Source: Candidatus Eiseniibacteriota bacterium (GTDB lineage Bacteria; Orphanbacterota; Orphanbacteria; Orphanbacterales; Orphanbacteraceae). From it: a stretch of DNA of 41,182 nucleotides. Both the position numbers and the translations under genes were made by a program. Shown in pieces: positions 3,890-34,623 of the stretch. Positions within the stretch are counted from its first letter, which is position 1; each line of letters begins with the position of its first letter. Location: positions 1 through 41,182 of the forward strand of contig JBDROZ010000099.1 in NCBI GenBank assembly GCA_043809585.1, written 5' to 3'. Below the pieces are notes generated by a model. The model searched no databases, had not been told where the DNA came from, and saw nothing but the letters and a program-made list of their open reading frames with translations.

Positions 3890-4870
3890 GTGAAGAAATA
3901 CGCCCTCGTCGTCACCCTCGCCGCCGCCTCGGGACTCTTCGCCTCCCCGGCCGCCGGGGAGAGCCCTTTCGGACGATTCGCCGTCTTCAGCCTCGGCGAC
4001 ATCGGTAATACGGAGCAGCCCTACCACAGTGACTTCCAGGGGGTCGGGGCCGCCGCCGGATCGGCGGTCTTCTTCGGCATGTCCCTGAACGACCTCGGCC
4101 TCCCCGCCGGAGAGGTGTCGTTTTTCGCGGGGGGCGATTTCACCTTCACTGGGTCGATCCGTCACGGCGGCGTCGAGGCGGGGGGGGAGGTGACCATGAT
4201 GGGAGTGAGCATCGAGGGGGACCTGAAGGCCGGCGGTGACGTGGCGGGAAACGGCGGGAGCATCGACGGAGACGTCGAGGCCGCCGGATCGATCTCGCTC
4301 ACCTCCCTCACCGTGGGCGGCGAAACGAAGCAGGGGGAGCCCTTCTCGCCGACCGAGGACCTCGGGGCGGCTTCCGAGTTCTTCCTCGAGCGGTCCGATC
4401 ACTACGCCTCGCTGGCGCCGACCGGGACACCCGACATCGGCGGGCAGGTCGTCTTCGACGCGGGGCCGGGCCGGAACGTCTTCGAGATCGCCGCCTCGGA
4501 CATGGACGCCGCCTGGGGCGCAGCGATCCGGGGGCCCGCGGGGGCGACGATCATCGTGAACGTTCTCGGGGTCTCGGGCGCCCTCACGAACATGGACTGG
4601 CAGGTGACGGGGGGGGCCGGGCTGACGGGGGTTCTCGTCCATTTCCCCGAGGCGACCTCCCTCGAGATTCAGGGGGTCGCCCTCTTCGGCAACATCCTCG
4701 CCCCCCGGGCGGCGACGTATTTTCCCGCGGGCCTCGTCGTCGGCGGCCTCTGGGTCGGCGATCTGCAAGGGGGCGGCCAGGTGAACTACGGCACCTTCGT
4801 GGAGCCGGACGAAACCCCCACCTCGACTCATTCCACCTCCTGGGGCGCCATCAAGAAGACCTTCCGGTAA
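3890..4870 (+). CDS. Secreted choice-of-anchor A domain protein with C-terminal SWGAIKKTFR tag
   Basis: Signal peptide MKKYALVVTLAAASGLFASPAAG; SDFQGVGAAAG, ATIIVNVLG, VLVHFPEATSL, GNILAPRA, GQVN resemble the choice-of-anchor A beta-helix domain. Confidence 0.72.
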   Translation: MKKYALVVTLAAASGLFASPAAGESPFGRFAVFSLGDIGNTEQPYHSDFQGVGAAAGSAVFFGMSLNDLGLPAGEVSFFAGGDFTFTGSIRHGGVEAGGEVTMMGVSIEGDLKAGGDVAGNGGSIDGDVEAAGSISLTSLTVGGETKQGEPFSPTEDLGAASEFFLERSDHYASLAPTGTPDIGGQVVFDAGPGRNVFEIAASDMDAAWGAAIRGPAGATIIVNVLGVSGALTNMDWQVTGGAGLTGVLVHFPEATSLEIQGVALFGNILAPRAATYFPAGLVVGGLWVGDLQGGGQVNYGTFVEPDETPTSTHSTSWGAIKKTFR

Positions 4871-4942: not shown

Positions 4943-5215
4943 GAGCGTTTTGCCAGGTATCCCGGCTTCTTCACCGACGCACGAATGGAGGCGAAGGATA
5001 TCCGGCACATCTGCAAATCGGATGCCGAAGGTGCGGCGCTCCTCAAAGCGGCCATCGAGAAGCTTGGCCTCTCGGCGCGCGCCCACGACCGGATCCTCCG
5101 CGTGGCGCGCACAATCGCCGACCTCGCGGAGCGCGACGATCTCGAACCGGTGCATGAGGCCGAAGCGATCCAGTACCGGAGCTTGGATCGGCCGAGGTGG
5201 AGGGAGGGGGGATAA
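4943..5215 (+). pseudogene. comM: comM/yifB (Mg-chelatase-like ATPase) 3' remnant, copy 1
   Basis: ERFARYPGFFTDARMEAKDIRHIC...LGLSARAHDRILRVARTIADLA...EAEAIQYRSLDR is the ComM C-terminal domain; no upstream comM sequence is present. Confidence 0.88.
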
Positions 5216-8390: not shown

Positions 8391-8825
8391 CCTGCGGCTA
8401 CCACGGGGAAGACCGCTGCACCCAGGCGCCGTCGCAGGTGGCGCGCTACGTCGGGCGGGTGTCGGGGCCGCTTCTCGATCGCATCGACATCCACGTCGAG
8501 GTCGGGCGCGTTCCTTAACAGAGACTTGTCGGGGATTGCGCTGAGCGAGTCGTCGGAGAAGGTGCGGGGGAGGGTGGAGCGCGCGCGCGACGCAGCGGGG
8601 ACGTTTCGCTTCGATTCTCGGCCTCTTCACGAAACCGCGCATGGAATCGCGCGACATCCGGGGTTTCGCGGTTCCCGACGAGGCGGGCCGCGCGCCCACG
8701 ACCGGATTTTCCGCGCGGTGCGCACGATCGCCGAGCTCGACGAGAGCGATAGACTCCTCGCGACGCACCTCGCCGAAGCGATCAAGTGCCGATCATTAGA
8801 CAAGCCGCGGTGGAGGGAGGGGTAG
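8375..8825 (+). pseudogene. comM: comM/yifB 3' remnant, copy 2 (frameshifted, internally degraded)
   Basis: [11 protein letters not shown]...[25 protein letters not shown] at 8516-8518 from a likely +1 insertion (VP-YRDLSG), then SESSEKVRGRVERAR...RAHDRIFRAVRTIAEL...HLAEAIKCRSLDKPRWREG. Confidence 0.9.
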
Positions 8826-9293: not shown

Positions 9294-10418
9294 ATGCGTT
9301 TCATGCTCATCATTCCCATGCTCTTCGTCGCCTCCCCCTATTCCGGATTGTACGCCCAGTGCACGCTCCCGGCGACCGGCGCTACCCAGTGCTCGGACGA
9401 GAACGGATGGGCCCCCTGCCCGGTACTCGGCTTTCCGGGGCAGGATGCGGAGACGGCGTACAACCAGTTGTCATACACGCTCGTCTCGGCCGTCCCCGGT
9501 CAAGAGACGGTGATCGACAACAACACGGGATTGGAATGGACTCAAATCTCGTTCCCGGACATGAGCTGGCAGGAAGCCCTCCAGTTCTGTGATACCTTGA
9601 ACTGGGGAGGAAAAGACGATTGGCGACTCCCCAACGTCAAAGAGCTTCAGTCGATTGTTGACTATGGGCGTTTCAACCCCCCAATAGACCCAATATTCAT
9701 TTGTCCTGCGGATCTGTTTTGGACGAGCACAACCGCGTCGTTGTGGGTACTCGACGGGCGAACGGCGTACGCGGCAGATGCTGTCGGGTTTGGGGCCGGA
9801 CACCTCGGCCAGCGGAGCAAGTGGGAGGAGAATTGCGTCCGGCCCGTTCGCGGCTGTCCCGGAGGGTTTGGTTGTTCGCTGCCTGCCACGGGCCAGCACG
9901 ACTGTTTCGATAACGATTCGTCCGAACCATGCCCGGTAGAGGGCTTCCCGAATCAGGACGCAGAGAACATCTACAACGACATGACGTACTCGCTCGACTC
10001 CTCCGTCCCCGGCGAGGAGACGATCCTCGATGGAATCACAGGTCTCGAGTGGTCGCAGCACGTCTGGGAGGAGGTCACCTGGCAGGAGGCCCTCCGGCTC
10101 TGCGACACTCTGCACTGGGGCGGGCATGACGACTGGCGGATGCCGAACCTGAAAGAACTGCAGAGCATCGCGCTCTATCAGGGTTGGGAGATCCCCGACA
10201 TCTTCGGCGATGCTTGGTGGTGGGAGTTCTGGTCGAGCACCACTTATGCCCCCGTTCCGGACTATGCTTGGGTACATGGCTACACGGAGTGGGGTCAATA
10301 CGAAGGCGGGAGCAAGACCAATGGAAACCACGACGTCCGCCCCGTCCGCTGGTGTGGCGAATCCCCGACGTCAACAGAGCGTTCAAGCTGGGGGTCGCTG
10401 AAGAAGATGTTCCGGTGA
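9294..10418 (+). CDS. Secreted tandem DUF1566 (Lcl C-terminal-like) protein with C-terminal SWGSLKKMFR tag
   Basis: Signal peptide; two repeats of LPATG...C...QDAE...TxxDxxTGLEW...WQEALxxCDTLxWGGxDDWRxPNxKELQSI...FWxSTT...VRPVR. Confidence 0.9.
   Translation: MRFMLIIPMLFVASPYSGLYAQCTLPATGATQCSDENGWAPCPVLGFPGQDAETAYNQLSYTLVSAVPGQETVIDNNTGLEWTQISFPDMSWQEALQFCDTLNWGGKDDWRLPNVKELQSIVDYGRFNPPIDPIFICPADLFWTSTTASLWVLDGRTAYAADAVGFGAGHLGQRSKWEENCVRPVRGCPGGFGCSLPATGQHDCFDNDSSEPCPVEGFPNQDAENIYNDMTYSLDSSVPGEETILDGITGLEWSQHVWEEVTWQEALRLCDTLHWGGHDDWRMPNLKELQSIALYQGWEIPDIFGDAWWWEFWSSTTYAPVPDYAWVHGYTEWGQYEGGSKTNGNHDVRPVRWCGESPTSTERSSWGSLKKMFR
9366..10350 (+). repeat. Intragenic tandem duplication (two DUF1566 modules, starts 513 nt apart)
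   Basis: Module 1 starts CTC CCG GCG ACC GGC (9366), module 2 starts CTG CCT GCC ACG GGC (9879); protein similarity is high with many synonymous changes. Confidence 0.85.
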
Positions 10419-13721: not shown

Positions 13722-15485
13722 ATGGGCCACGGCCAAAGTCACGGCCTGTTTCCGCACGTTCTTTCGCTGTTGGTCGCGGCGGCTTTTCTCCCTTCGTCCG
13801 CGCCGGCCCTCCTTTCGATCGGGGACACGCTCACGGTCATCCAGCGACCTCTCCTGAATATCCCCGCGATCATGACGCCGGGGGACACGCTTCCCATTTC
13901 GTGCGAGGCCGATCCGGGCACGACCGGTTGGGCCGCCGAGCTGGTCTACGGATCCCTCACCGTCCCCCTGGCGGTGGTCTCTTCGAGCTACGACGCCTCG
14001 ACGCTCTGGTGGACGGTGAAAGCCGTGGTCCCGCCGGTCGATCTCTACGAGCTGTACGACCTCCGGGTGACCGCGGCGGTGGGGATCGACGACGTCTCGT
14101 GGAACGCGGTGAACGTGATCCCGGCGTTCGAGGACGACTGGTACTTCATTCACCTGACCGACACCCACATGCCGACCCACCTCTATTACTACGAGAACGG
14201 AGCGGAGACGGACACGTCGGAGCTTGTCGACTTCCGGGAGGTCATGAATGACGCGGCGATCATCCATCCCGAGTTCGTGCTGATCACGGGTGATTTCATC
14301 AACGAGGGCGAACTCGAGGAGTACCTCTCGAAGCGCTACTACACGCGGACCCAGAAGGCCCTCGCCGAGTCGGAGGTGCCTACCTACCTGACCTCGGGGA
14401 ACCACGATCTCGGAGGTTGGGACGAGACGCCCCCGCCGGACGGGACGGCCCGCCGCGACTGGTGGCGGTTCTTCGGCTGGAAGCGGCTCGACAGCCCGCC
14501 CGCCGGGGCGCCCTGGTACACTCAGAACTACAGCTTCGATTACGGCCCGGTGCACTTCGTCGGGCTCGAGGCGTACATCAACTACGACGACTGGCGCCCG
14601 GGCATCTACGGCGCCGACAGTTTCACGCCGGGCCAGATGCAGTGGCTCGCGGACGACCTCGCCGCCGCGCCGGGAGGCTCCGCGAAGGTCCTCTTCTACC
14701 ACCGGGATTTCTCGGGCCAGATCGACTTGAACTCCCTCGGCGCCATCCTCGCCCTCTCGGGGCACACGCACAGTGACAACGGGAGCGTCGGCGGAAGCGG
14801 GCCGTGGGATCTCACGACGGACAATGTCTGCGACGGCGCCCGGTCGTACCGCCTGATCCGCGTGTCGGGCGGAGCGATCCAGCCCACGGCGACGATGAGC
14901 GCGGGGGGGAGCGGTCAGAATCTCCGGGTCGCCTACAGCCCGTCCAACGACGGCACCGCGGAGAGCGTGACCGCGCTGATCACGAACAATCAAAGCCAGC
15001 GATTCCAAAACGGACGGATCCGCTTTTTCATGCCCGCCGGCGCGGCTTCCTATGATGTGACCGGGGGGACCCTCGCCCAGGTGGACGATTCGGAGGGGAT
15101 CGCCGTCTGTTACGTGGATGTCGACATCGACCCGTCGTCGAGCCAATCGGTCACGGTGACGGCGGACATGACGTCCGCGAACGTCGCGTCCGGGGCGCCC
15201 GTGGCCGGAAAGATCGCGCTCTCGGCGGCCCGTCCCAACCCGTTCAATCCTTCCACGATCCTCGGCTTCGAGCTCGCCGAGATGTCGGACGTTCGTCTCT
15301 CGGTCTACGACGTGAGGGGGCGGGAGATCGCCCTTCTCGCCGCGGGAATATTCGAGGCGGGCGGACACTCCGCGCGGTGGGGCGGGACGGACGCCTCCGG
15401 CGATTCGATGCCGTCCGGCGTCTACTTCGTGCGGCTCCGCGCGGGCGGCGAGTCGCTCGCGCGAAAGGTGCTGCTCGCGCGTTGA
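13722..15485 (+). CDS. Secreted metallophosphoesterase with C-terminal FlgD-Ig/T9SS type A-like sorting domain
   Basis: DTH, TGDFIN, GNHD, GHTH motifs; C-terminal PNPFNPST...VYDVRGR...SGVYFVRL...KVLLAR. Confidence 0.85.
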   Translation: MGHGQSHGLFPHVLSLLVAAAFLPSSAPALLSIGDTLTVIQRPLLNIPAIMTPGDTLPISCEADPGTTGWAAELVYGSLTVPLAVVSSSYDASTLWWTVKAVVPPVDLYELYDLRVTAAVGIDDVSWNAVNVIPAFEDDWYFIHLTDTHMPTHLYYYENGAETDTSELVDFREVMNDAAIIHPEFVLITGDFINEGELEEYLSKRYYTRTQKALAESEVPTYLTSGNHDLGGWDETPPPDGTARRDWWRFFGWKRLDSPPAGAPWYTQNYSFDYGPVHFVGLEAYINYDDWRPGIYGADSFTPGQMQWLADDLAAAPGGSAKVLFYHRDFSGQIDLNSLGAILALSGHTHSDNGSVGGSGPWDLTTDNVCDGARSYRLIRVSGGAIQPTATMSAGGSGQNLRVAYSPSNDGTAESVTALITNNQSQRFQNGRIRFFMPAGAASYDVTGGTLAQVDDSEGIAVCYVDVDIDPSSSQSVTVTADMTSANVASGAPVAGKIALSAARPNPFNPSTILGFELAEMSDVRLSVYDVRGREIALLAAGIFEAGGHSARWGGTDASGDSMPSGVYFVRLRAGGESLARKVLLAR

Positions 15486-17155: not shown

Positions 17156-18288
17156 TGGGAGGGGGAGAGGTGGTGGGGGAGGTGCGCGTTCTCTTCTTGT
17201 CCGACACCCATCTCGGTTTCGATCTTCCCCGGGCCGCCGCTCTCCCGGCCACCCGACGGGGGGAAGACTTCTTCGGAGCTTTCGAACAGGCCGTCGCCCC
17301 CGCGCTCCGGGGGGAAGCGGATCTCCTCCTTCACGGGGGGGACGTCTTTTTCCGCTCCCGGGTGAGGGAGGGAGTCGTTCTGCGGGCTCTGGAGATCTTC
17401 CGGGCCGTCACGGCCGCCGGTGTGCCCGTCGTGATCCTCCCCGGCAATCATGAACGGTCCGCCCTCCCCTTCCCCCTCTACTGGAGTTTTCCCGATCTTC
17501 ACGTCATCGATCGACCCCGCACGGTCCGGTTCGATGTGCGGGGAACGAAGATCGCCGTCTCGGGCTTCCCCTTCGAAAGGGTGGATCTCCGCCGGAAGTT
17601 CCCCGGGCTCCTCTCCGCGACATCGTGGGACCGGCGGCCCGCGGACGTCCGACTGCTCCTGATGCATCAGACCGTGGAGGGGGCGACCGTGGGGCCGGCC
17701 GATTTCACGTTCCGGGGGGGGGCGGACGTGCTGCCCGGTCGGCTCGTGCCGGACCGGTTCGCGGCGGTCCTCTCCGGACACATCCACCGCGCTCAGGTGC
17801 TCCGGCGGGATCTCGCGGGGCGGGCTCTCGGGACTCGAGTCCTCTACGCCGGCTCGACGGAGAGGACGTCCTTCGCCGAAAGGAACGAGCCGAAGGGGGT
17901 CCTTCGGCTCCGAGTCCGGTCGACCGGGGACGGCCGGGGGCGAATCGCCGACGCCCTCTTCGAGGAACTCCCCGCCCGGCCGATGGCGGCCCACGATCTC
18001 GATTTCCGGGGCGTGGCGCGGCCGGAGGCGGAGGCCGAGCTCCGGCGTGCCATCGCCCGGTGTGACAGAACCGCGGACGTCCGTCTTCGCGTCCGGGGGC
18101 CGGTGGGGGAGGAGACCGCGCCCCTCCTCCGGCCTGCGTCGCTCCGCCGGCTCGCCCCACCGACGATGCGCATCGAGGTCCGCTTTCCCTACTCCACCGC
18201 CCGGACCCGCCACGCCTTCCGGCAGGCGGAGCCGAAGACGCCGATCCCGCCCTCGACGCCGCCGTTCAGTTCGGGATGGTCACGGTAG
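17155..18288 (+). CDS. SbcD/Mre11-like DNA repair exonuclease (metallophosphoesterase)
   Basis: SDTHLG, HGGDVF, PGNHE, SGHIH, YAGSTERTSFAERNEPKG; start overlaps the upstream stop (TGATG). Confidence 0.82.
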   Translation: MGGGEVVGEVRVLFLSDTHLGFDLPRAAALPATRRGEDFFGAFEQAVAPALRGEADLLLHGGDVFFRSRVREGVVLRALEIFRAVTAAGVPVVILPGNHERSALPFPLYWSFPDLHVIDRPRTVRFDVRGTKIAVSGFPFERVDLRRKFPGLLSATSWDRRPADVRLLLMHQTVEGATVGPADFTFRGGADVLPGRLVPDRFAAVLSGHIHRAQVLRRDLAGRALGTRVLYAGSTERTSFAERNEPKGVLRLRVRSTGDGRGRIADALFEELPARPMAAHDLDFRGVARPEAEAELRRAIARCDRTADVRLRVRGPVGEETAPLLRPASLRRLAPPTMRIEVRFPYSTARTRHAFRQAEPKTPIPPSTPPFSSGWSR

Positions 18289-19085
18289 AGGTAGTTGTAG
18301 TAGTTCTCGTCGACCGACAGCACCTGGATGTCGTAGTCGCCGTAGAAGACGAAGAGGTCTCCGTACCAGCCGAGCCGGTAATGGCCGTTCTCCCGCTCCA
18401 GACCCTTGACGCGGAAGTAGGGGGCGATATGCCGGGGCTGCCCGTTGTCGCCGCCGTACTCGTCGTAGTCCACGGGCCCTTCCTCGGGCCCGATCGCCTC
18501 GACGTACTTCGCGTCCTCCCAATCCTCGAGGCAGTACGCGTCGACGAGGAAGACCTGGTCGTCGAATTCGCAGTCGAGGTAGATCGGGAAGGAATCGGCG
18601 ATGGCGGAGTGGGCCATCGAGTCGGGGAGGACCCGGGGCTCGGAGAAGACCTCGAAGGGCCACGGAGTGGTCGTGGTGGCGTTGATCGGGTCCTCGCCGC
18701 CCGCCTCGACCCTCAGGTGATAGGTCGTCACCGGCTCGATCGCGACGGCCGGGTTCGCGTAGTAGCCGGGGCGGACCATCGCGAGGGTGTCGGGGGACTC
18801 GGCCCCCTCCTTCCACAGAGTGACGAGGGCGTCCGTGACGACCGCGTCGTCCAGGGAGTAGTACTCGTCCACGGGCATGGTGCGGGAGAGGAAGATCGCG
18901 AGATCGTCGCTTACCGTTTCGTTCACGTAGAGATAGCCGAAGACGACGATCTCCCTTTCCAATCCCGGTCCCGTCGTGTCGCCGCTGCCGCAGCCGGCAA
19001 GGAACGGCAGGAGGAGGGCCGCGAGGAGGGCCGCGGGCCAGAGCCCGCCGCCGATGCTCTCCATGATCGCTGATTTCCCGTTCAT
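18189..19085 (-). CDS. DUF4249-like lipoprotein (TonB receptor partner)
   Basis: Lipobox LAGC; IVVFGYL...LSRT...DAVVTDALVTL; SVDENYYNY...VEGGIGVFGS; directly downstream of a TonB-dependent receptor. Confidence 0.78.
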   Translation of the reverse strand: MNGKSAIMESIGGGLWPAALLAALLLPFLAGCGSGDTTGPGLEREIVVFGYLYVNETVSDDLAIFLSRTMPVDEYYSLDDAVVTDALVTLWKEGAESPDTLAMVRPGYYANPAVAIEPVTTYHLRVEAGGEDPINATTTTPWPFEVFSEPRVLPDSMAHSAIADSFPIYLDCEFDDQVFLVDAYCLEDWEDAKYVEAIGPEEGPVDYDEYGGDNGQPRHIAPYFRVKGLERENGHYRLGWYGDLFVFYGDYDIQVLSVDENYYNYLYRDHPELNGGVEGGIGVFGSACRKAWRVRAVE

Positions 19086-19098
19086 GACCGTCGTCTCC

Positions 19099-21321: not shown

Positions 21322-21717
21322 GGCAAGACCTCCTGGTTCTGTCCCCGCCGGTGTGAGGCGGCGAGGGGGCGTTGAACGTTCGATGCTCGTTTTCGATGGG
21401 CGGCATCTTATCCCGGCTGCGCGGGTGAGGCAAGGACCGGGGCCGCCCCCCTGACCTCTCGCCTACCCTGGTCCGGCGATTCTCACCGGCCCAAAGCAGG
21501 GATCGTGCCATAGGCCCGATCGGCGAATACGGCCTTCTCGGCCCTCCGCCGCCCCTTTCCCTCGGGCGCCGGAGCGGAGTGTGAGAACCGGCGACACCGG
21601 CGGGTGTGCCGAGTCGCCACGGGTCCGGGGGGACGGGGGTGGTTGCGGGATGGTCCGGGCCGGTGTACGGTAGGCGTCACGGAACGGCACCGACGATCGT
21701 CTTCGGAGGATCATCTC

Positions 21718-25442: not shown

Positions 25443-28400
25443 TCACCGGATCAGGGTGATCTTTCTCGTCGCCGTCTCTCCTCCCGCGCGGAGCCGGACG
25501 AAGTAGATTCCCGAGGCGACCGCGGCCCCCCGGGCGTCGGTGCCGTTCCAGAAGGCGGTCCGGTATCCGGCCGGCACCGGTTCGTCGACGAGGGTCTTCA
25601 CGCGGCGGCCCGTGAGGTCGAAAACGTCGACCGCGGCGTGCGCCGCCGTTCCCGCCCGGCCCGGCACGGTGAATCGGATCGTCGTGGCGGCGTTGAACGG
25701 GTTCGGCGCGTTGCCGAGAAGGGCGAGGGGCGCGGCCATAGGGCCGCCGTCGCCGCGGGCCACGCCCACCGGCTCGTTCGTTGCATCCGGCAGGCCGTCG
25801 CCGTTCCCGTCCACCGTCAAGGTCACGTAGTTGTCGAGATCCGGCGCCGTCGCCGAGATGTTGTCGGGCGCCTGATCGCCGCCGAGTTCGCCGTCCGGCT
25901 CCGGGTCCCAGGTGATCGACGCGACGAGGCTGATCGAGGCGCCGGGGGGCACGTTGCCCGCACCGAGGCCGTAGATGACGTCCCAGGGGATCGCCATCTC
26001 GCTTCCCCCCTCCGTCCCGTAGAAATGCGGGGAGTCGAATGCGGAAACGATGGACCCGCTGAAGTCCTGGGTGGTCGTGTCGCTCGTGATCTTCCAGAAG
26101 CTGTCCGAATCGAACGGGCCCTGGTGCTGGTAGCAGCCGTACTGGAAGTCGGCGGGGAAGGGGAGGTGGGCGCCCCGCTCCCAATGGTCGATCGAGTCGA
26201 GGTCCGACTCGCCGGCCGATCCGCCGGGGTTCGTGTCCAGGTAGAGAAGCCACGAGTTGCCGTGGACCATCCCCTCGATGCCGAGGTAGAGGAAGGTGCC
26301 GTCCCAGGTCATCCAGAGACCGTTGATGTCGTTCGTGTCCCCCGGGGCGGGGGTCGTCCACTGGCTGTCCCAGTCGTCGTTCACGACCCGCATGGCGGAG
26401 GTCCACTCGCCCGGATCGAAGTAGCCGTCGATGGTGATCATCGTCGCCGGCGCCACGGTGATCTGGATGTCGTCCGTGTGATCCTGGGCGTCGTTGCCGT
26501 TCCCCGCCTCGTCCCGCACCGTGTTCGCGGCCAGCATCAGCTCGAGGGTGTTCGGGCTGAGCGCGTCGATCGCCGCCGCCGTCGAGGCGTCGAGGTCGAT
26601 GTCGATCCGGACGCTGTTGTTCACGGTCCTGACCGAGCAGCCCGCCGAGAAGGTCACGTCCGCCGCGCCGTCGTCGTCGTCGTCCACCGAGAAGCCGGTC
26701 ACCGTCACCTGATCGTATTTCACGACTTCGTTGAACCGGATCGAGATCCGGTCGGGAGTCGGGAAGTAGGTCGCGGAGATCGCACCCGGCGCGAGCGTGT
26801 CGGTGAGGGCGGTCGCGAGGGCTTGGAGCTCGGCGACGTTGCCGTTCCCGTCGGGCGGCGCCGTCTCGCCGGCGAAGAGGTACACCTCGAACTGCCCGCT
26901 TCCGAAGATCTCGTCCACGCCGAGCAGGGTCGAGTTGTACTGCAGGTTGAAGCGGGCCCCGCCCCCCCCCACGACCATCGCCGCCGTGGCCCCTGAGTTC
27001 GGGTTCCGCTGGCCGAAGTAGGCCCCCGCGGCGGGCGTCGCCGCCCAGATCCGGTCGCTTTCGGCGTTCCAGATCAGGTCGAGGAGGTCGGGGGAGAAGC
27101 CGCTCTTCATGTAGACATCCTGGCCCCCGGCGTCGTAGATCACGCCGATATGCTTGGCGCCGGACGTCAGGTTCAGCCGCTTCTTCACGTTCGGGTGGAC
27201 CAGGTCGAGGGTGACCGTGCCCCCCGAGCCGGCAACGACGTCGATCGAGTACGTGTCGTGCTCCCGGTCGAGGCCGGCCACGGAGACGTCCGAGAGACCG
27301 CCCGTGTGGTTCCCCTCGTTGTAGTCCCCTTCCGTGTCCGCCCAGTAGACGTTGCAGTTCCCGATCACCGAGTACTCGTCCCCCGCCTCTTGCGCGAAGA
27401 GATAGACGATCCGCCCGCCGATCGGCTCGATCACGGCGAAGAGGTTCTCATTGTAAATGACGCCTTCGTCCTCGCCGTCCTCGTCGATGTCGGAAAGGTA
27501 GGCGCCCGTGGCCGCGGGGTAGTCGCCGTTCGCCCACCGCGACGCCTCCGCGTAGACGTTCGCGTTCTTGATGTGGTTCGAGTAGCGGTAGATCCACCCG
27601 CTGATCTCTCCGTTGTCGTGCCAGCCGGTCTCGTGGAGGTTCGTCATCATCACGTACCACGCCGTTTCGGAGAGGTCGTTCGCGGGGGAGCCCATGATCT
27701 TGTTGTACGTGTTGTTCCAGATCGTCCCGTAGTCCCAGGTCGGCACGTGGAAGTCCCAGACGTGCTGGGGATCGTCGTAGGCCGCCCAGTCGATGTACCA
27801 CGAGTTGTTCCCCCCGCCGTAACCCCACTTGCCGCCCAGAAGCCCGTAGGTCCCGTTCTGGATCGTCGGGTTGTTGGAGCGGAGGAACGCCCCGTGATGG
27901 ATCGCGTCGGAGAGCTTCCAGACCGCCACGGTGCCGCTGTTGATCGAACACTGCTGCAAGACGTTGATCCAGTTGTTGAGGGCCCACGCGTTCGAAGCTC
28001 CTTGGCTCACTTCGGAGGGGATCTCCCAGTCGTTTCCGTAGACCAGGATCTCGTCTGACGAGAGGCCGATGATCATGTTCCACGCCGAGCCCCAGTCGTT
28101 GTCCATGTTCCCCACGAAGTCGCCGTCCATGGGGATGAATTTGAGGCCGCTCGAGTGGATGTAGATATGACGGTCGTCGAAGACGTTGTTGTAGTAGTCG
28201 AGGTGAATGTAGTCGTCGAGCATCACCGCCCGGACGCCGTGGGGAAGCCAGTCGTCGAGCAGGGTGTTGTCGACGACGCCCCCGTCGGCGGCGATCCCGT
28301 TCCCGTCGTTGTCCGGGTTCTCGAGCCAGACCCGCTCCGGCACCCACGCCACCGTCGCCGTGTCGCCGTAACGCCAGTCGGACATCACTTTCTCGATGTT

Positions 28401-29450
28401 CACCGCCCAGTCGTTCATGTCGTCTTGGACGAAGGGCATCATGTGCTGGGCGTAGGCGGACGTGATGATGTCCCCCCATCCGTTCGAGACGGCGGCGGCC
28501 ATGGAATCGTTGAACTCGGGGTTGTGCCACTCCGCCGCGGTCTGGAGCTGCCCGGCGAGGTGCATGTTCAGCGGGATCTGGTAGTACCGGTGGGCGTCCA
28601 GAATCTCGTCGAAGCCGTCGTCGGGGTTGGCGGGGTCACCCGGCCCGGCGGCGTTCTCGCCCCGCTCGCCGTAGAAGACCGTGGTCCACGTGAGCCCCTG
28701 GTTGCCGTGCACCATGAACGCCACGTTGTGATCGCCCGCGAGGGCCCCGTTGTCCGTGACGATGTCGTCGATCATCTCTTCGCCCCGGGCCGTGAAGACG
28801 TAGAAACGGACCGGTGTCGCGTCCCGTGCGGCCAGGGAGGGCGCGATCGTCTCGTAGGAGACGCCCGACTTCCCCGCCGCGGCGAGGGCGGCCTCCTCGA
28901 AGCCGCCGGGGAGCCAGATCTCCCCCTCCACCATATGGTGCCGGGAGGTGACGAGGGCGCTCTTGATCCGCTCCGTCTCGGACGGGTTCATCGAATCGTC
29001 GAGAAGGGCCGCCCGGAGATCACCGCCTTCGTAGCCCAGCCGGAGGACCCGGTCCCAGGCAATCGGCGATTCGCCGGCGATCCCGTCGGGGAGCGCGGTG
29101 GTCCCTCCTTCGAGATAGTCGAGGGCGACGTACAGCCGGACGCCGGAGTCCCGCATCCGGTTCGTTTTGCCGTCGTACGATCCGAGGTCCTTCACCTGGG
29201 CCCGGAAGACGAGACGGTCCGTGTTCTGGTCGTAGTAAAACGCCATCAGATCGCCGCCCCCGGCGTCCGAGCGGACGTCGTAGACCGGATCGAGCGCCCT
29301 CCCATGCTCCGCTCCGTAGAGGGACGGATCCCCGAGCGCCTCGATTCCGGGGGCGGGGACGGCCGGAGGCGACCAGGCGGGGGCGGCGGTCGGAACGAGA
29401 ATCGAAAGGGCGGCGAGGGTTCCGCGAAGGCGGGCGCGGGTCGTCGACAT
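25443..29450 (-). CDS. Secreted multidomain GH57-family glycoside hydrolase with CBM9/DOMON-like domain and FlgD-Ig/T9SS-like CTD (about 1335 aa)
   Basis: Start ATG 29450 with signal peptide; GH57-like regions MVHGNQ, WVPERVW (nucleophile Glu) and YGNDWE (acid/base Asp); C-terminal PNPFNAATTIRF...VFDLTGRRVKTL...SGIYFVRL...KITLIR. Confidence 0.78.
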   Translation of the reverse strand: MSTTRARLRGTLAALSILVPTAAPAWSPPAVPAPGIEALGDPSLYGAEHGRALDPVYDVRSDAGGGDLMAFYYDQNTDRLVFRAQVKDLGSYDGKTNRMRDSGVRLYVALDYLEGGTTALPDGIAGESPIAWDRVLRLGYEGGDLRAALLDDSMNPSETERIKSALVTSRHHMVEGEIWLPGGFEEAALAAAGKSGVSYETIAPSLAARDATPVRFYVFTARGEEMIDDIVTDNGALAGDHNVAFMVHGNQGLTWTTVFYGERGENAAGPGDPANPDDGFDEILDAHRYYQIPLNMHLAGQLQTAAEWHNPEFNDSMAAAVSNGWGDIITSAYAQHMMPFVQDDMNDWAVNIEKVMSDWRYGDTATVAWVPERVWLENPDNDGNGIAADGGVVDNTLLDDWLPHGVRAVMLDDYIHLDYYNNVFDDRHIYIHSSGLKFIPMDGDFVGNMDNDWGSAWNMIIGLSSDEILVYGNDWEIPSEVSQGASNAWALNNWINVLQQCSINSGTVAVWKLSDAIHHGAFLRSNNPTIQNGTYGLLGGKWGYGGGNNSWYIDWAAYDDPQHVWDFHVPTWDYGTIWNNTYNKIMGSPANDLSETAWYVMMTNLHETGWHDNGEISGWIYRYSNHIKNANVYAEASRWANGDYPAATGAYLSDIDEDGEDEGVIYNENLFAVIEPIGGRIVYLFAQEAGDEYSVIGNCNVYWADTEGDYNEGNHTGGLSDVSVAGLDREHDTYSIDVVAGSGGTVTLDLVHPNVKKRLNLTSGAKHIGVIYDAGGQDVYMKSGFSPDLLDLIWNAESDRIWAATPAAGAYFGQRNPNSGATAAMVVGGGGARFNLQYNSTLLGVDEIFGSGQFEVYLFAGETAPPDGNGNVAELQALATALTDTLAPGAISATYFPTPDRISIRFNEVVKYDQVTVTGFSVDDDDDGAADVTFSAGCSVRTVNNSVRIDIDLDASTAAAIDALSPNTLELMLAANTVRDEAGNGNDAQDHTDDIQITVAPATMITIDGYFDPGEWTSAMRVVNDDWDSQWTTPAPGDTNDINGLWMTWDGTFLYLGIEGMVHGNSWLLYLDTNPGGSAGESDLDSIDHWERGAHLPFPADFQYGCYQHQGPFDSDSFWKITSDTTTQDFSGSIVSAFDSPHFYGTEGGSEMAIPWDVIYGLGAGNVPPGASISLVASITWDPEPDGELGGDQAPDNISATAPDLDNYVTLTVDGNGDGLPDATNEPVGVARGDGGPMAAPLALLGNAPNPFNAATTIRFTVPGRAGTAAHAAVDVFDLTGRRVKTLVDEPVPAGYRTAFWNGTDARGAAVASGIYFVRLRAGGETATRKITLIR

Positions 29451-29592
29451 GGAAATACTCCTCACGATGGCGGACAGGGGAGCGGGGTGTAGGGCACACA
29501 CGAGAAACGGTCCGCCGGCCCCCGCCCGGAGCGTGGGAGGGGGCTCCGACGGTCGGCGCGGACCGCGCCCGCATCTTCTAAATAGCGAATTA

Positions 29593-29621
29593 ATTATACC
29601 ATCGCCTCGCCGCCCGATCAA
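29593..29621 (-). promoter_or_regulatory. Sigma70 promoter for the GH57 gene
   Basis: Minus strand TTGATC (29621-29616), 17 nt, TG-G-TATAAT (-10 at 29598-29593); the -35 overlaps the GH13 stop codon. Confidence 0.7.
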
Positions 29622-32257
29622 TCGCTTCCGGCCGACTCGGGGAATGCGAGGACCGCCCCCGCGAAGGGCTCGAGCCGGATCGTGAGCGCGTCCTCTTCGA
29701 AGGCGAGGTCCTGTCCGGCGAAGAGATCCCGGGCCCTCTCCGCGGGGAAGGGGAGGGCCGCCGCCTCGAGGACGATCTCCGCCGGGGCGTTGCCGGCGTT
29801 CAGGATCACCGCGAGCCGGTCGCCTCCCTTCCAGCGGGCGAAGGCGAAGAGATTCCGGTCGGCGAGGAGGGTCCGGAAATCGCCCCGCCGGAGCGCCGGG
29901 TGCTCCCGCCGCATCCCGAGATAATGCCGGATCCGCTCCCGGATCGCCCGGGCCGAGGGCTCCTCGAGTCGCTTCCACCCGAAGGGCCGGCGGCAGTCCG
30001 GGTCGGGCCCGCCCGCCATGCCGATCTCGTCCCCGTAGTAGATGTGGGGCGCGCCGATGTAGGTGACCGAGAAGAGGGTGGCGAGAAGGAGGCGGCGCGT
30101 GTCACCGCCGGCGGACGTGAGGAACCGCTCCGTGTCGTGGGAGCCGAGGAGGTTCATCGCGCCGAGGACCGACGGGAGGGGGTACGAGTACCGCCCGCCC
30201 GCGATTTGGAGGTCGAATGTCCTCGCGTCGATCCGGCTCTGGGCGAAAAAGGCGAGGGCCGGCTCCCGGAAGTACCTGTAGTTCATGGTCGCGTCGAACT
30301 GGAGCGGCGAGAGCTCGCTCGCGGCGTCCCCCCAAAGCTCGGCGATCACGTAGCCGTCGGGCTTCACCTTCCGCACTTCCTCGCGGAAGAGCTTCCAGAA
30401 CCAGGCCGGGACCTCGTTCGCCACGTCGAGCCGGAAGCCGTCCGCCCCCAGGTCGCCGAGCCAGAATCGGACCGTCTCCCGGATCTCTTCGATGACGGGC
30501 CAGTTCGGTTTCGCGTCGGAGACGCGCCGCGCCTCCTGCTCCACCGGGCCGAGGCGGGCGAGGTCGAAGTTCAGGTTCGGAAGGTCGCCGAAGCCCCACC
30601 AGCAGTCGTAGTAGTCGATCGCCTTCTCCGAGGGGCCCCACGATTCGGGGATGGGCCACTTCTTCCACTCGTACCACGTCCAATAGGGGGACTCCTTCCC
30701 CTTCTCCACGCACTCCCGGAAGGCGTAGTGACAATTCCCCGTGTGGTTGAAAACGCCGTCCACGACGATCCTCATGCCCGCCTCGTGGACCGTCTCCGCG
30801 AGTGCCCGGAACGCCTCGTTGCCGCCGAAATGCGGGTCCACCTCCCGGTAATCGCAGGCGTCGTACTTGTGATTCGACTTGGCCGTGTGGAGGGGATTGA
30901 AGTAGAGAATCGTGACCCCGAGGTCCTTCAGGTAGGGGATCATCTCCTGCACGCCTTCGAGATCGCCGCCGTAGAAGGAGAAGTAGTCGGGCCGGCCATC
31001 GGTCCGGTAGGGGCTCTTCTTCAAGCCCTCCACGTCGTACCAATCGTGCACGAGATGGTAGTATTCCCCGTTCGTCGTTCCCGACTCGGGAAGCTCCGTC
31101 TTCCCCGCGTACCAGGGCTCGGAGAAATCGGGGTCGTTCTTCTTGCTTCCGTTCCGGAACCGCTCCGGGAAGATCTGGTAGAAGACTCCGTCCACCACCC
31201 AGTCGGGCATGGAAAAGAGGGGGTTCTGCATCGGCCCGACCGGAATCAGATCCGCGTCCGACGCTTTCTCGGTGAGGCCCGTCCGGGTCATGATCCGCTC
31301 CGCGGAGCCGTCCCGGAAAAGAACCCCGAGCCGCCCTTCCGTTTCGACCGGCATCTCCAGCTCCCCCCGGAAGTAAGTGTAGCGGCCGTCTTCGCCGATC
31401 CCGCGCATGGGAAGACGGGTCTCCTCTCCCCGGCGCCGGAAGAGGAGGGAGGCGCCGGTCACGTCCCCCTGGAAGGCCCGGGCGGTGACCACGAGGCGCT
31501 CCGGTTCGGTCCGCACGATATGGGCGTCGGTCTCCAGATTCAGGGTTCCCTCCCGGATGCTCCCGTCTCCCGCCACGATCGCGACCTTGGGGAAGCGGTC
31601 GTCGACGAGGAGGACCGAATTCAACCCCCCGAACCCGTCGTCGACGGTCCGGTCGTTCTCCGCATCGTGGCGCCAGACGCCGTCGGCGACGAATTTGTAG
31701 AGGACCTCTCCCGGACCGAGGAGAAGGGTGGTGGCGAAGGCCCCCTCCGAGTCGGGGCCGGACATGGGGAGGGCGTCCGGTTTCCACTCGTTGAAAGTCC
31801 CCGCCAGGAAAACCCGGCTCGGGACCGGGTCGCCCCGGAAGAAGAACTTCACTTCCCGCATTTCGGTCCCCGCCGACTTCTTGATCGGGCCGATTCGGTA
31901 GGTCTCCGGCTTCGGTCGCGCGCCGCCGGCGTAGATCACCGAGTTGGCCGATCCGTACGGGTTCGGCGCCGACTCGGAAGCTCCCGGGTCTTCCACCCAA
32001 TCGCCGTCGACGACGAACTTGTACTCGTGACGGCCGGGGGCGAGGTCGAGGGTCGCTTCGAAAATGCCGTTGCCGTCCTCGTCGGTCAGGGCGTCGGCGG
32101 CCGGGTCCCACTGGTTCCAGTCGCCCGCCACGAAGATCTGCTCCGCGTCTTTCCCGGGGGCGTAGCGGAAGGTGACCGGATCCGCAGCGGCGGGCCCGGA
32201 GGCGGCGGCGAGGAGCAGGACGGGAAACAGGGAAAAGAAGAAGGGGCGGACGCGCAT
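29618..32257 (-). CDS. GH13 neopullulanase/cyclomaltodextrinase-like alpha-amylase family enzyme with signal peptide and two N-terminal CBM48-like domains
   Basis: FYQIFPERF, GGDLEGV, SNHKYD, DGVFNH, DGFRLDVANE (nucleophile), AELW (acid/base), GSHD, YYGDEIGM; two GxWN/FNxW...YKFVxDGxW..D modules. Confidence 0.92.
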   Translation of the reverse strand: MRVRPFFFSLFPVLLLAAASGPAAADPVTFRYAPGKDAEQIFVAGDWNQWDPAADALTDEDGNGIFEATLDLAPGRHEYKFVVDGDWVEDPGASESAPNPYGSANSVIYAGGARPKPETYRIGPIKKSAGTEMREVKFFFRGDPVPSRVFLAGTFNEWKPDALPMSGPDSEGAFATTLLLGPGEVLYKFVADGVWRHDAENDRTVDDGFGGLNSVLLVDDRFPKVAIVAGDGSIREGTLNLETDAHIVRTEPERLVVTARAFQGDVTGASLLFRRRGEETRLPMRGIGEDGRYTYFRGELEMPVETEGRLGVLFRDGSAERIMTRTGLTEKASDADLIPVGPMQNPLFSMPDWVVDGVFYQIFPERFRNGSKKNDPDFSEPWYAGKTELPESGTTNGEYYHLVHDWYDVEGLKKSPYRTDGRPDYFSFYGGDLEGVQEMIPYLKDLGVTILYFNPLHTAKSNHKYDACDYREVDPHFGGNEAFRALAETVHEAGMRIVVDGVFNHTGNCHYAFRECVEKGKESPYWTWYEWKKWPIPESWGPSEKAIDYYDCWWGFGDLPNLNFDLARLGPVEQEARRVSDAKPNWPVIEEIRETVRFWLGDLGADGFRLDVANEVPAWFWKLFREEVRKVKPDGYVIAELWGDAASELSPLQFDATMNYRYFREPALAFFAQSRIDARTFDLQIAGGRYSYPLPSVLGAMNLLGSHDTERFLTSAGGDTRRLLLATLFSVTYIGAPHIYYGDEIGMAGGPDPDCRRPFGWKRLEEPSARAIRERIRHYLGMRREHPALRRGDFRTLLADRNLFAFARWKGGDRLAVILNAGNAPAEIVLEAAALPFPAERARDLFAGQDLAFEEDALTIRLEPFAGAVLAFPESAGSD

Positions 32258-32425: not shown

Positions 32426-33742
32426 ATGACTGCGAAGACCCTCTGCCTTGTCCCGGCGGTCCCCGCGTTCTCCCTGCTCGCGGCCCTCTTGTGGCCCGCT
32501 TTGACGGCCGCCGAAACCGCCCCGGATCTCTCGGACCGCATCGTGATCGACGGATACTCCTCGGATTTCGCCGAGGACGAGGCGGTGTTCGTGGACACCC
32601 TGATCGACGTGAACGGCGACGGGGTGCCCGAAGCGGTCTCCCAGGAGAGGGACAACGACTCGAAGTGGGGGTTCAACAACGACATCAACCAGATCAAGAT
32701 CACCTGGGACGCGGAGAACCTGTACGTCGCCGTCGACGGGATCTCGTGGGACAACAACATCATCCTCCTGTTCGACTATCTCCCCGGCGGCCTCGACCGG
32801 ATGACGGAGCTGAACTCGTGGCGGCGGAACTTCGTCTTCGCCGGCAACTTCTTTCCCGATCTCTTCCTCGCCACATGGGACGGCAACACGACCCCCCAGA
32901 TCTGGCGCTACGCGAACGAGAATCAGGTGACCCAGGTCGACATCTCCCTCTTCGAGACGGTGGCCACCTTCGCCCAGGGGAACCCGGGGCGGTCCATGGA
33001 GGCCCGGATTCCGTGGACCGTGTTCTACGGCCGGAAGCTCGACCGGCGTTACAGCGCGGAGATCCGCGACTCGGTCTACGTGCTGCCCGCCGGCCTCGAT
33101 CCATCCCGCTCGATCCGCGTCTGTGCGATTCTGACGGCGGGGGGGGACGGCACGGGGGGGCCCGATTCCGCGCCCGACAATCTGGGGGGGCACAACATCG
33201 AATCCTCGTTCCAGGTGGTGATCGACAACTTCGCGATCGTGCCCCTCGACACCACCTACTACATGACCTCCACCGGGCGGCGCGTCTATGACTGGGAAGA
33301 GGGGGTCGCGGATACGGTTTCCGCCGACGGTTCGCCCGATCTCGGGGTGGGCATCTCCGAGAGGCGTGCGTTCTTCATCGTCCCGCCGGTGATCCCGAAG
33401 AACTTCACCTTCAGTGATCTCCGTTTCGAGCGACCCGTCATCTCCCCCGAGCGGGGGGAGTTCCTTCGATTCGACTTCCGGTTTTCCCCCGAGCCGGATA
33501 CGCTCGACTTCTTCCGGTTCGTCCGGGTGAGCGCCGAGATCTATGATCTCCGCGGGGAGCGGGTCCGGGTGCTCTACCGGGACGACGCGAGGAGCGCCAT
33601 CTCTCCCGTCGATCCGGGACGGGACTTCTGGGACGGCCGGGACGAGAGCGGACGGTTCGTGCCCGGGGGGATCTACCTGCTTCGCTTCGTGGTGGAGCCC
33701 GGGGTCTTCCGCACGACGAAAGGGTTCTCGGTGGTCCGATGA
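32426..33742 (+). CDS. Exported protein: CBM9/DOMON-like domain plus atypical FlgD-Ig/T9SS-like C-terminal domain
   Basis: GGAG RBS, ATG 32426, signal peptide; IVIDG...DINQIKITWDAENLYVAVDG...MEARIPW; C-terminal AEIYDLRGERVRVL...WDGRDESGRFVPGGIYL...FSVVR. Confidence 0.68.
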   Translation: MTAKTLCLVPAVPAFSLLAALLWPALTAAETAPDLSDRIVIDGYSSDFAEDEAVFVDTLIDVNGDGVPEAVSQERDNDSKWGFNNDINQIKITWDAENLYVAVDGISWDNNIILLFDYLPGGLDRMTELNSWRRNFVFAGNFFPDLFLATWDGNTTPQIWRYANENQVTQVDISLFETVATFAQGNPGRSMEARIPWTVFYGRKLDRRYSAEIRDSVYVLPAGLDPSRSIRVCAILTAGGDGTGGPDSAPDNLGGHNIESSFQVVIDNFAIVPLDTTYYMTSTGRRVYDWEEGVADTVSADGSPDLGVGISERRAFFIVPPVIPKNFTFSDLRFERPVISPERGEFLRFDFRFSPEPDTLDFFRFVRVSAEIYDLRGERVRVLYRDDARSAISPVDPGRDFWDGRDESGRFVPGGIYLLRFVVEPGVFRTTKGFSVVR

Positions 33743-34623
33743 AGAGAACCGTCTGCGTAGCGATTCTCGCCCTGGCCTTCGCAGGTCCGGCGTGGTCCTA
33801 CTTCGACCGGCTCGAAGTGGGGAGCCGCGCCCTCGCCATGGGCAAGGCGTTCCACGCCATCGCCGACGATCCGTCGGCGGTCTACTGGAACCCGGCCGGT
33901 TTCGGCTGGCAGCGGCGGAACCAGGCCCTCTTCGCCCACTACCGCCCCTATGTGGTGGAGGACCTTTCCGTCAACTTCGCGGCCCTCACCCTCCCGGTGC
34001 CGAAGAGGATCGGCACACTGGGGCTCGGCTGGCACCACACGGGCCTCGCGGACGTGGTCTCCGAGGACCTCTTCTTCTTCTCCCTCGGGCGCCGGTCCTC
34101 CCTCCCCGCCGTGGGGGACGTCGGCGTCGGCGTCACGGGAAAGATTTTCCGCGTCGGCTACCAGAACTTCACCGACCTCGAGACCCTGGAAGAAGTCGAC
34201 TACGGATCTCAGACGAAGTTCGCCGTCGACGTCGGCGCCATCGTCCAGCCGACCGACCTCATCCGGGTCGGCCTGATCGTCCGAAATATCGGCGAGCCGG
34301 AGTTCGACTTCGTGAGCGGGAACGGAGGCACCCGCATGGAGGCGGAGGCGGAAGGGTCCGTGAGCTACCGCTGGAACGAGGCGTCCCTCGTCTCCGCCGG
34401 GTTCGCCCGGGACCGGCGGGGGGACTACCGGCCGATGGCGGGGGGGGAGGTGACGTTCTTCGACGTCTTCGCCCTCCGGAGCGGCGTTTTCGATTACGAG
34501 TTCTGGGGGGGATTCGGCATCCTCACGGGTTCCTGGTTCTTCGACGCCGGATTCAACACGCACAAGGACCTCGGCGTCTCCTACATGGCGTCCGTCACGG
34601 TCCCCTTCGGGAGGGAGCGATGA
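33739..34623 (+). CDS. PorV/PorQ-family (FadL-like) outer-membrane beta-barrel protein
   Basis: GSRALAMGKAFHAIADDPSAVYWNPAG signature; amphipathic beta-strands; ATGA overlaps at both ends. Confidence 0.8.
   Translation: MKRTVCVAILALAFAGPAWSYFDRLEVGSRALAMGKAFHAIADDPSAVYWNPAGFGWQRRNQALFAHYRPYVVEDLSVNFAALTLPVPKRIGTLGLGWHHTGLADVVSEDLFFFSLGRRSSLPAVGDVGVGVTGKIFRVGYQNFTDLETLEEVDYGSQTKFAVDVGAIVQPTDLIRVGLIVRNIGEPEFDFVSGNGGTRMEAEAEGSVSYRWNEASLVSAGFARDRRGDYRPMAGGEVTFFDVFALRSGVFDYEFWGGFGILTGSWFFDAGFNTHKDLGVSYMASVTVPFGRER

Follow-up and report, generated by a model that had tools for sequence, protein, structure and literature searches.

The C-terminal sorting signals closest to the element reported here belong to type IX secretion systems (T9SS) and to the PEP-CTERM class. 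The type-A C-terminal domain (CTD) of T9SS cargo (TIGR04183/PF18962/PF13860) is a folded β-sandwich, whereas PEP-CTERM (TIGR02595, PF07589) is a short tag with a transmembrane (TM) helix between its motif and a terminal basic cluster. The T9SS translocon is described as recognizing the folded shape of the CTD, the conserved residues of which specify its fold and not translocon contacts (PMC10994853); type-A CTDs are described as using the PorV shuttle and type-B CTDs as using PorP/SprF-like shuttles, often encoded beside their cargo (PMC12618676); and both PEP-CTERM and T9SS CTDs are described as being removed by sortase-like enzymes (PMC4560394). Here we report a different kind of C-terminus from a 41,182-nucleotide contig of a Candidatus Eiseniibacteriota bacterium (JBDROZ010000099.1 of assembly GCA_043809585.1; the whole stretch is hereafter the window), viz., a tail of about 20 residues, lacking both a TM helix and a fold of its own, which ends two otherwise unlike exported proteins and recurs on dozens of others encoded by the same genome. 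It is a real, modular C-terminal tag without prior description and is very probably a protein address label.

A C-terminal tail on two unrelated exported proteins

The tail terminates the products of two genes of the window, P0001 and P0002, which are laid out as follows:

3890..4870, + strand: gene P0001, an exported choice-of-anchor A protein of 326 aa with a signal peptide, a β-solenoid passenger and the tail
4811..4870, + strand: P0001 tail ETPTSTHSTSWGAIKKTFR and stop codon, made up of a T/S-rich motif, a spacer and the core; 33.0 bits with the tail hidden Markov model (HMM)
4841..4867, + strand: P0001 core nonapeptide WGAIKKTFR, with W, G, K and R invariant in 50 aligned tails
9294..10418, + strand: gene P0002, an exported protein of 374 aa with two Lcl_C (DUF1566) domains
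10359..10418, + strand: P0002 tail ESPTSTERSSWGSLKKMFR and stop codon; 33.8 bits with the tail HMM
10389..10415, + strand: P0002 core nonapeptide WGSLKKMFR, read from the translation and the tail HMM

The two tails lie at the extreme C-terminus of their proteins and are identical at 12 of 19 positions in an ungapped alignment; read directly in the DNA, 6 of the 12 identical residues are encoded by different codons. The P0001 passenger is recovered by the choice-of-anchor A model TIGR04215 at 104.3 bits (cut-off 29) and also by PF20597; consistent with that family, it scores over the curated cut-off and has relatives that carry different C-terminal anchors at the same junction. P0002, for its part, matches PF07603 (Lcl_C/DUF1566) with 151.6 bits in two stretches, and the N-termini of both proteins are signal-peptide-like. 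On these domain assignments the two passengers are unrelated. The original prediction, which was made from the window alone, had described the pair in just these terms, i.e., a gapless 12/19 identity at the extreme ends of unrelated proteins with signal peptides and with differing codons, and the sequence bears it out. Neither tail is covered by any Pfam or NCBIfam model at E≤1, and the T9SS CTD models likewise give no match to P0001 or P0002 at that threshold.

Two short open reading frames (ORFs) next to these genes, at 4985-5215 (+) and 8526-8825 (+), resemble only the C-terminal part of Mg_chelatase_C (ComM/YifB-like); one directly follows the first tail gene and the other directly precedes the second. 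The same fragment family also flanks another tail gene of this genome (contig C96, 22354-22767 and 27078-27554). Since these flanking fragments have the appearance of an integration target whose 3' end was duplicated repeatedly, these tail genes may occupy integrated islands.

The tail across the genome

Within its genome (G000; 4.24 Mb, 66% GC, 97.5% complete), the window makes up contig C99. A six-frame search of this genome with a regular expression for the core gave 55 matches, 47 of which are immediately followed by a stop codon; among ORFs of at least 60 aa, the core lies 0-4 residues from the end in 50 and is internal in 3. The 20-residue tail HMM adds ten near-variants, with W-T or W-S for W-G or with the last R replaced by H, Q or E, bringing the total to 60 tail-bearing proteins, about 2% of a crude set of 2904 gene models. 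Their consensus reads [PG]-T-S-T-E-x-x-[ST]-W-G-x-[VI]-K-x-[LM]-F-R-stop. Within the 50 tails found by the regular expression, W, G, K and R are each present in all 50 and F in 47. The last nine residues of the tail hold about 30 bits of information. The chain ends exactly at the last motif position in 56 of the 60 proteins and runs on for 1-4 residues in the other four; the final residue is Arg in 52. No C-terminal match turned up in any of 20 residue-shuffled replicates of the proteome, whereas the unshuffled gene set has 44.

By a lenient heuristic, whose background rate is inflated since it accepts internal starts and TM proteins, 45 of 50 tagged ORFs have a signal-peptide-like N-terminus, as do 861 of 2852 background genes (Fisher p 3e-18). 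With about 60 copies in this genome and 24-57 matches to the tail profile in each of 10 genomes of the window's phylum, the motif is not limited to the two genes that first drew attention to it, nor is it a feature of cytoplasmic proteins or of internal positions. The passengers are diverse. Pfam families at E≤0.001 were obtained for 13 of the 48 tagged ORFs outside the window (4 of these 13 fall below Pfam's own cut-off) and include VWA, right-handed β-helix/NosD, PPC, MAM, fn3, PD40, LTD and CarboxypepD_reg; the remaining 35 have no Pfam family at that threshold.

A further 149 proteins of the genome share a FlgD-Ig type CTD that ends T-[RK]-K-[MVIL]-[VT]-L-[LIV]-R-stop, and none of them is among the 60 tail proteins. 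The two classes also differ in the motif T[SGAP]T[EDQ], which is present in 31 of 60 tails but in only 2 of the 149 regions around CTD junctions and in 7 of 1862 windows taken at random. When the 50 tails, taken as 40 residues each, were compared with the NCBIfam sorting-signal and T9SS CTD models, none matched at E≤10, and no description of the tail was found in the papers searched. Thus, it had not already been assigned to a family in Pfam, NCBIfam or these papers.

Two tail proteins of unusual build may be recorded here. A 209-aa member of a small paralog family (contig C115, 42812-43441, - strand) has a full tail in its interior, separated from the stop by 83 residues, and a further, degenerate copy at its C-terminus (…NYRAIRGMFR), possibly through fusion or tandem duplication of two small tail genes. 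A 549-aa ORF (contig C88, 27728-29377, + strand) has the tail-like SWGDLKKIFH at residues 272-281 in addition to a normal terminal tail and may represent a fusion or a single ORF drawn over two genes.

Exchange with known sorting signals at the same junction

The replacement of a T9SS CTD or a PEP-CTERM by the tail on homologous passengers demonstrates its portability directly, as the original prediction had proposed. When the 60 tail proteins of the genome were compared after removal of the tail, 21 had a paralog bearing the FlgD-Ig CTD. In 19 of these 21 cases the passenger alignment ends within 12 residues of the junction, beyond which most of the CTD paralogs extend for a further 100-120 residues or so of linker and CTD. 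Members of the P0001 family (11 aligned proteins, including the query) carry the tail in 7 cases, while P0010 and P0011, with 45% and 42% identity, have PEP-CTERM at exactly the same junction, with a precomputed PF07589 assignment for P0010. In the family of small FN3-like proteins considered below, P0040 has a canonical type-A CTD (PF18962) where 14 other aligned members have the tail.

In its resemblances to PEP-CTERM the tail goes beyond this shared junction in P0001 orthologs, for both are short C-terminal tags with a Pro-containing start and a basic end, but PEP-CTERM has its TM helix between motif and basic cluster and the tail has none. The tripartite LPXTG, GlyGly-CTERM and MYXO-CTERM tags and their like differ in the same respect, the tail having no TM segment and, in a comparison confined to the signals themselves, no match to an NCBIfam sorting-signal model. 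Dependence on an exosortase was rejected, no exosortase gene having been found in this 97.5%-complete genome: PF09721 gave no match at E≤0.01 (in the control, 1 of 14 genomes matched), and TIGR02595 gave no PEP-CTERM match, as it gave none in the control genomes either. Outer-membrane β-barrel proteins offer another comparison. In diderm bacteria these Sec-exported proteins carry a short motif, the β-signal, at the extreme C-terminus, where an envelope machine reads it; it differs in ending on an aromatic residue and forming the last strand of a barrel, whereas the tail mostly ends in Arg and its passengers are soluble (β-solenoid, FN3-like).

A single-copy form on a small FN3-like protein

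Three genomes reached by a species-wide pattern scan (G082, G085 and G089) contain the tail only once, on an exported protein of 130-139 aa. The same protein family is also present in G011, G025 and G080, so that it was seen in six genomes, with lengths of 130-148 aa, at these loci:

L278:7634-8038, + strand: small FN3-like protein
L275:9974-10366, - strand: small FN3-like protein
L276:10638-11039, + strand: small FN3-like protein
L277:9757-10176, - strand: small FN3-like protein
L279:8070-8477, - strand: small FN3-like protein
L281:8020-8466, - strand: small FN3-like protein

The last ten residues of this protein are the tail core. It belongs to no Pfam or NCBIfam family, the source records call it a 'hypothetical protein', and its atlas clusters are unnamed. 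Its FN3-like sandwich is a very common repeat: 118,014 library proteins match it at E≤0.001, and in many of them it recurs from several to dozens of times. No homolog of the small protein was found in the window's genome. Across the six genomes no neighbour is conserved; an Omp85 gene beside the small protein in G089 was considered as a partner and dropped, as it is not conserved in the other genomes examined.

Within the phylum of G025, the motif, as the end of this small protein, was found in 59 of 79 genomes, as a single copy in 57 and as two copies in 2. Carriers of the single-copy form are relatives of Ignavibacteriota, Calditrichota and Fidelibacterota. This single-copy form reads WG[ST]IK[AS][ML]FR or a close variant, with WGSIKAMFR-stop being near-invariant. 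A near-invariant decapeptide on a conserved single-copy gene argues for a specific and conserved binding partner. Taken with the conservation of W, G and K across lineages, it implies a putative reader that is sequence-specific. Such a partner would occur well beyond the tag-rich lineages, and this may explain why profiling against tag-rich genomes came out empty.

A short terminal peptide outside the passenger fold

AlphaFold, run for P0001 with an 11-row alignment, gave a mean pLDDT (predicted local distance difference test score) of 86.5, with a β-solenoid over residues ~30-300 at pLDDT >90. The last 25 residues are placed outside this fold as a low-confidence linker, in which DSSP assigns a helix at 318-325 (pLDDT ~42). 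The model of the small FN3-like protein (mean pLDDT 85.5) has an FN3-like sandwich at 24-116, followed by a helix at 121-132 that covers the tail (pLDDT 54-61). Hence, in two unrelated proteins, the tail is predicted, at low confidence, to be a flexible linker with a short terminal helix external to the passenger.

The tail has no TM helix or other hydrophobic stretch, in agreement with the original prediction, and its last nine residues have a mean net charge of +2.3. Its helical hydrophobic moment, at 0.61, is unremarkable beside the 0.41 +/- 0.19 of shuffles, 15% of which reach it, and the helical amphipathicity of the core is thus not significant.

Taxonomic spread and co-occurrence with the type IX secretion system

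A species-wide scan used a back-translated pattern, biased to AAG and to TTC/TAC codons, and returned at least 128 matching stretches. Among the 128 listed, 125 were taken as clean tails, and about 4 look like chance matches by eye. The lineages represented among these listed matches are Candidatus Eisenbacteria, Krumholzibacteriota, Latescibacterota, uncultured Fibrobacteraceae, Gemmatimonadetes, Ignavibacteria and Calditrichaceae, all belonging to the Fibrobacteres-Chlorobi-Bacteroidetes (FCB) group. The same matches show W, G and K conserved in at least 8 named lineages, and the core is constant while the part upstream of it varies by lineage (TSTE, PVE, PTR).

We further examined a panel of 81 genomes, comprising 10 of the window's phylum and 71 single representatives of other families. 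The DNA pattern for the core plus stop was present in 17 of the 81, and the reversed-pattern control in none. SprA, the translocon of the T9SS, was found with a score over its curated cut-off in all 17 motif-positive genomes and in 9 of the 64 motif-negative ones. Outside the window's phylum the corresponding figures are 7 of 7 and 9 of 64 (hypergeometric p ~9e-6, to be read with the phylogenetic non-independence of the genomes in mind). Of ten more tail-bearing genomes taken from the pattern scan, 9 have SprA; with one that duplicates a panel genome set aside, the figure is 8 of 9, and the exception is an assembly of 1.6 Mb whose completeness is unknown. A genome that lacks the strict pattern may nevertheless carry the tail in a relaxed form, as exemplified by the distant genome G044 (loci L282-L291), where 8 of 10 tails have W-S in place of W-G and 6 of 10 lack the final Arg. 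For the phylum of G025, the T9SS link could not be discriminated because SprA occurs in 75 of its 79 genomes (56 of 59 motif-positive and 19 of 20 motif-negative).

The type IX secretion system of the window's genome and the search for a reader

The complement of T9SS genes in the window's genome includes SprA, a PorV adjoining PorU, a second full-length PorU and about nine PorV-like barrels. Model organisms are described with a single PorU. This genome encodes four complete PorU-like C25 peptidases (propeptide, catalytic domain and FlgD-Ig CTD), two of which score over the PorU cut-off. The PorU2 and PorV2 models (NF052324, NF052325) did not reach their cut-offs, with 96-128 bits for the PorU-like proteins (cut-off 450) and 35-50 for the PorV-like ones (cut-off 325). 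The window itself holds three genes relevant to the comparison; its use of FlgD-Ig CTDs, already remarked upon in the original prediction, was confirmed on both strands:

13722..15485, + strand: comparator, an exported Metallophos protein with a FlgD-Ig type (T9SS-like) CTD (PF00149, PF13860), a member of the 149-protein CTD cluster
25443..29978, - strand: comparator, a 1511-aa protein with a FlgD-Ig type CTD (PF13860 at residues 1443-1498), of the same cluster
33739..34623, + strand: weak PorV/PorQ-family outer-membrane barrel, a possible T9SS shuttle paralog (NF033709 at 59 bits, cut-off 90; TraF_2) with no shown link to the tail
Elsewhere in the genome, C39:1342-6015, C39:109673-113914, C66:9931-14091 and C25:64670-69349: the PorU-like C25 peptidases

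Tail and type-A CTD have much in common: both stand at the extreme C-terminus of diverse signal-peptide proteins, in the same genomes and at the same junction, and both have a conserved Lys close to the end (invariant at -4 in the tail, 4-5 residues from the end in the CTD) and a hydrophobic-hydrophobic-basic finish. The latter, written with [RK] as its last position, is seen in 47 of 60 tails and 119 of 149 CTDs but in only 26 of 2695 other genes. They differ in build, the CTD being a β-sandwich with the last 85 residues aligned and the tail an unfolded stretch of some 20 residues, and in cargo, which has a median length of 260 aa for the tail and 761 aa for the CTD (Mann-Whitney p 7e-22).

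In looking for a reader of the tail, we compared this genome with 20 tail loci of G068; 9 of 60 best matches fell in the tail-neighbour set (15% against 16.8% expected), and no candidate emerged. MacB/HlyD-type genes, with 4 of 8 family members near tail genes, were not taken as significant. PorV-family barrels adjoin CTD genes and not tail genes, with closeness to a tail seen only on contig C50 of the window's genome and at one locus of G065. Three of the four PorU-like C25 peptidases have a tail gene within ~10 kb, for which the chance expectation is ~25% per gene (estimated from 60 genes in 4.24 Mb). Several Eisenbacteria have a partial PorU-like paralog beside tail genes, a weak lead, since none came up at E≤1e-30 in G068 or G044; these two genomes have one full-length PorU each. 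A co-fold of PorV (alignment A4) with the tail (alignment A1) had a score of 0.00 and a mark of 0.32 and is counted neither way.

Interpretation

We propose that the tail is a portable address tag for Sec-exported proteins, which is read by its sequence by a component of the envelope, most likely one linked to the T9SS. We place the probability of this reading at roughly 0.6. Once the protein is exported, the flexible T/S-rich linker would expose, at the end of the chain, a basic peptide of the form [ST]-W-G-x-[VI]-K-x-[LM]-[FY]-R to a conserved envelope component, whose reading of it would decide the final place of the protein, on the cell surface or within the outer envelope. Such a tag would be an alternative to the ~90-residue T9SS CTD, used mainly for small cargo. 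Its reader would most likely be T9SS-linked (a shuttle, an attachment step or a surface partner), and not an exosortase or sortase, because the tail occurs only in T9SS-bearing bacteria. That the tail sorts or anchors its cargo, that a protein reads it and that the T9SS takes part are steps we infer, with the case for sorting being a comparative one. The original prediction had likewise set the tail apart from the longer CTDs and from the tags with a TM helix, and this distinction stands; the separate recognition machinery that it drew from the distinction is less secure. As no dedicated reader was found and the tail is confined to genomes with a T9SS translocon, the tail may use T9SS-linked parts rather than a machine of its own.

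A number of observations weigh against this proposal. The association with the T9SS is confounded by phylogeny: in family f76, SprA is present in 15 of 16 genomes and the motif in only 3 of 16, and SprA was missing from three motif-positive genomes of G025's phylum and from G083, which are incomplete or of unknown completeness. The tail as a signal for the T9SS is also weakened because the translocon is described as reading the folded shape of the CTD, which a 20-residue peptide cannot mimic. The likeness of its end to that of the CTD is, as far as the sequences tell, one of position and not of homology; hhalign finds no profile-profile similarity between the two (P 0.31), and the idea that the tail is a homolog of the last CTD strand was accordingly abandoned. 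Nor do the last residues of the two signals co-vary, as the CTDs of G044 end in K/R in 28 of 30 cases and yet 6 of its 10 tails are without the final R. Around the 60 tail genes, the sole recurrent neighbours are regulators and members of the CTD family of 149. A second PorU as the reader was rejected, two full-length copies being found only in G000, G002, G003, G008 and G009 (5 of 10 genomes of the phylum), as was a dedicated shuttle of the PorV/PorP type, with 7-19 barrels in tail-negative T9SS genomes against 8-14 in tail-positive ones. Finally, with four secretin-family genes in the window's genome, the proteins may take other routes across the outer membrane.

As a tentative extension, which we hold to be distinctly less probable than the proposal itself, the tail could be a third, minimal class of T9SS-linked signal, in which a linear peptide of ~10 residues would suffice to pass small Sec-exported proteins to a T9SS shuttle or attachment step, or to dock them on a surface partner delivered by the T9SS. 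It might have begun as the conserved C-terminus of the single-copy FN3-like protein, which persists in the phylum of G025, and then been copied onto dozens of cargo proteins in Eisenbacteria, the lineage of G068 and others as a cheap substitute for the CTD.

Among the other explanations, all of which we consider unlikely, the best placed is an anchor that requires no receptor, with the tail acting as a cationic, Trp-led helix that binds the membrane interface, anionic lipopolysaccharide or a polysaccharide in the manner of C-terminal amphipathic-helix anchors. The terminal helix modelled on two unrelated proteins, the net charge of the last nine residues (+2.3) and the failure of neighbourhood and paralog analyses to deliver a reader gene would all suit such an anchor; however, the hydrophobic moment is not significant, the helices are of low confidence (pLDDT 42-61), near-invariant W, G and K on unrelated passengers of many lineages, with ~30 bits in nine residues, exceed what a generic affinity for membranes needs, and the position is fixed at the chain end in 56 of 60 proteins. 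Slightly less probable, by analogy with sortase, exosortase and PorU, is a processing tag, which would be cut at the T/S-rich motif by a PorU-type C25 peptidase or another enzyme, after which the passenger would be joined to a glycolipid at the surface or to the wall. The exchange with PEP-CTERM and T9SS CTDs, the specificity of T[SGAP]T[EDQ] for the tail and the four C25 peptidases, three of them with a tail gene nearby, are consistent with this, but a TM helix is lacking, the genome gave no exosortase or PEP-CTERM match (TIGR02595 being empty in the control genomes too), the lineage-specific upstream motifs (TSTE, PVE, PTR) leave no conserved cleavage site, additional PorU paralogs are not universal in tail-positive genomes, and about one gene in four would have a tail gene within 10 kb by chance.

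The tail might also have nothing to do with location and instead serve stability or assembly, as a motif for docking or quality control that, for example, a chaperone, protease or partner protein of the periplasm would bind at the C-terminus; we rate this a little lower again. Modules that bind C-termini typically take hold of a motif at the very end of the chain, and the presence of the tail in G025's phylum on a single conserved small protein, and not on many cargo proteins, fits a specific protein-protein contact. Against it stand the replacement of bona fide sorting signals in three unrelated families and in 21 within-genome comparisons, the extracellular look of the adhesin-like and enzyme-like passengers and, as regards a strict reading of the free carboxylate, the 1-4 extra residues in 4 of 60 tails and the loss of the last residue in G044. 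Shared ancestry through recent duplication, or coincidence, as the source of the two window tails has a negligible probability in view of the unrelated passengers, the empty shuffled replicates (0 in 20) and reversed-pattern control (0/81), and the 125 clean tails among the 128 matches listed.

Other features of the window

On the - strand, 18189-21321 encodes a TonB-dependent-receptor-like protein (CarboxypepD_reg and Plug) followed by a DUF4249 lipoprotein-like gene. The pair has a SusC/SusD-like arrangement and adjoins an exported protein with three FN3 domains at 21604-22869.

Implications

From each of the LPXTG, PEP-CTERM and T9SS CTD tags followed the discovery of a dedicated envelope machine, and predictions of surface proteomes now make use of them. 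The tail has neither the membrane helix of the sortase tags nor the folded domain of the T9SS signal, so that a different mode of action is to be expected of its reader. All annotation libraries miss it at present, and ~2% of the predicted proteins of Eisenbacteria-type genomes are thus annotated without a destination, as are others in many uncultured lineages of the FCB group. Its occurrence only alongside the T9SS, together with the invariant end of one small protein, makes the question of the reader testable. For display in Bacteroidota-like hosts, a surface-targeting tag as short as 10-20 residues would be of practical use as well.

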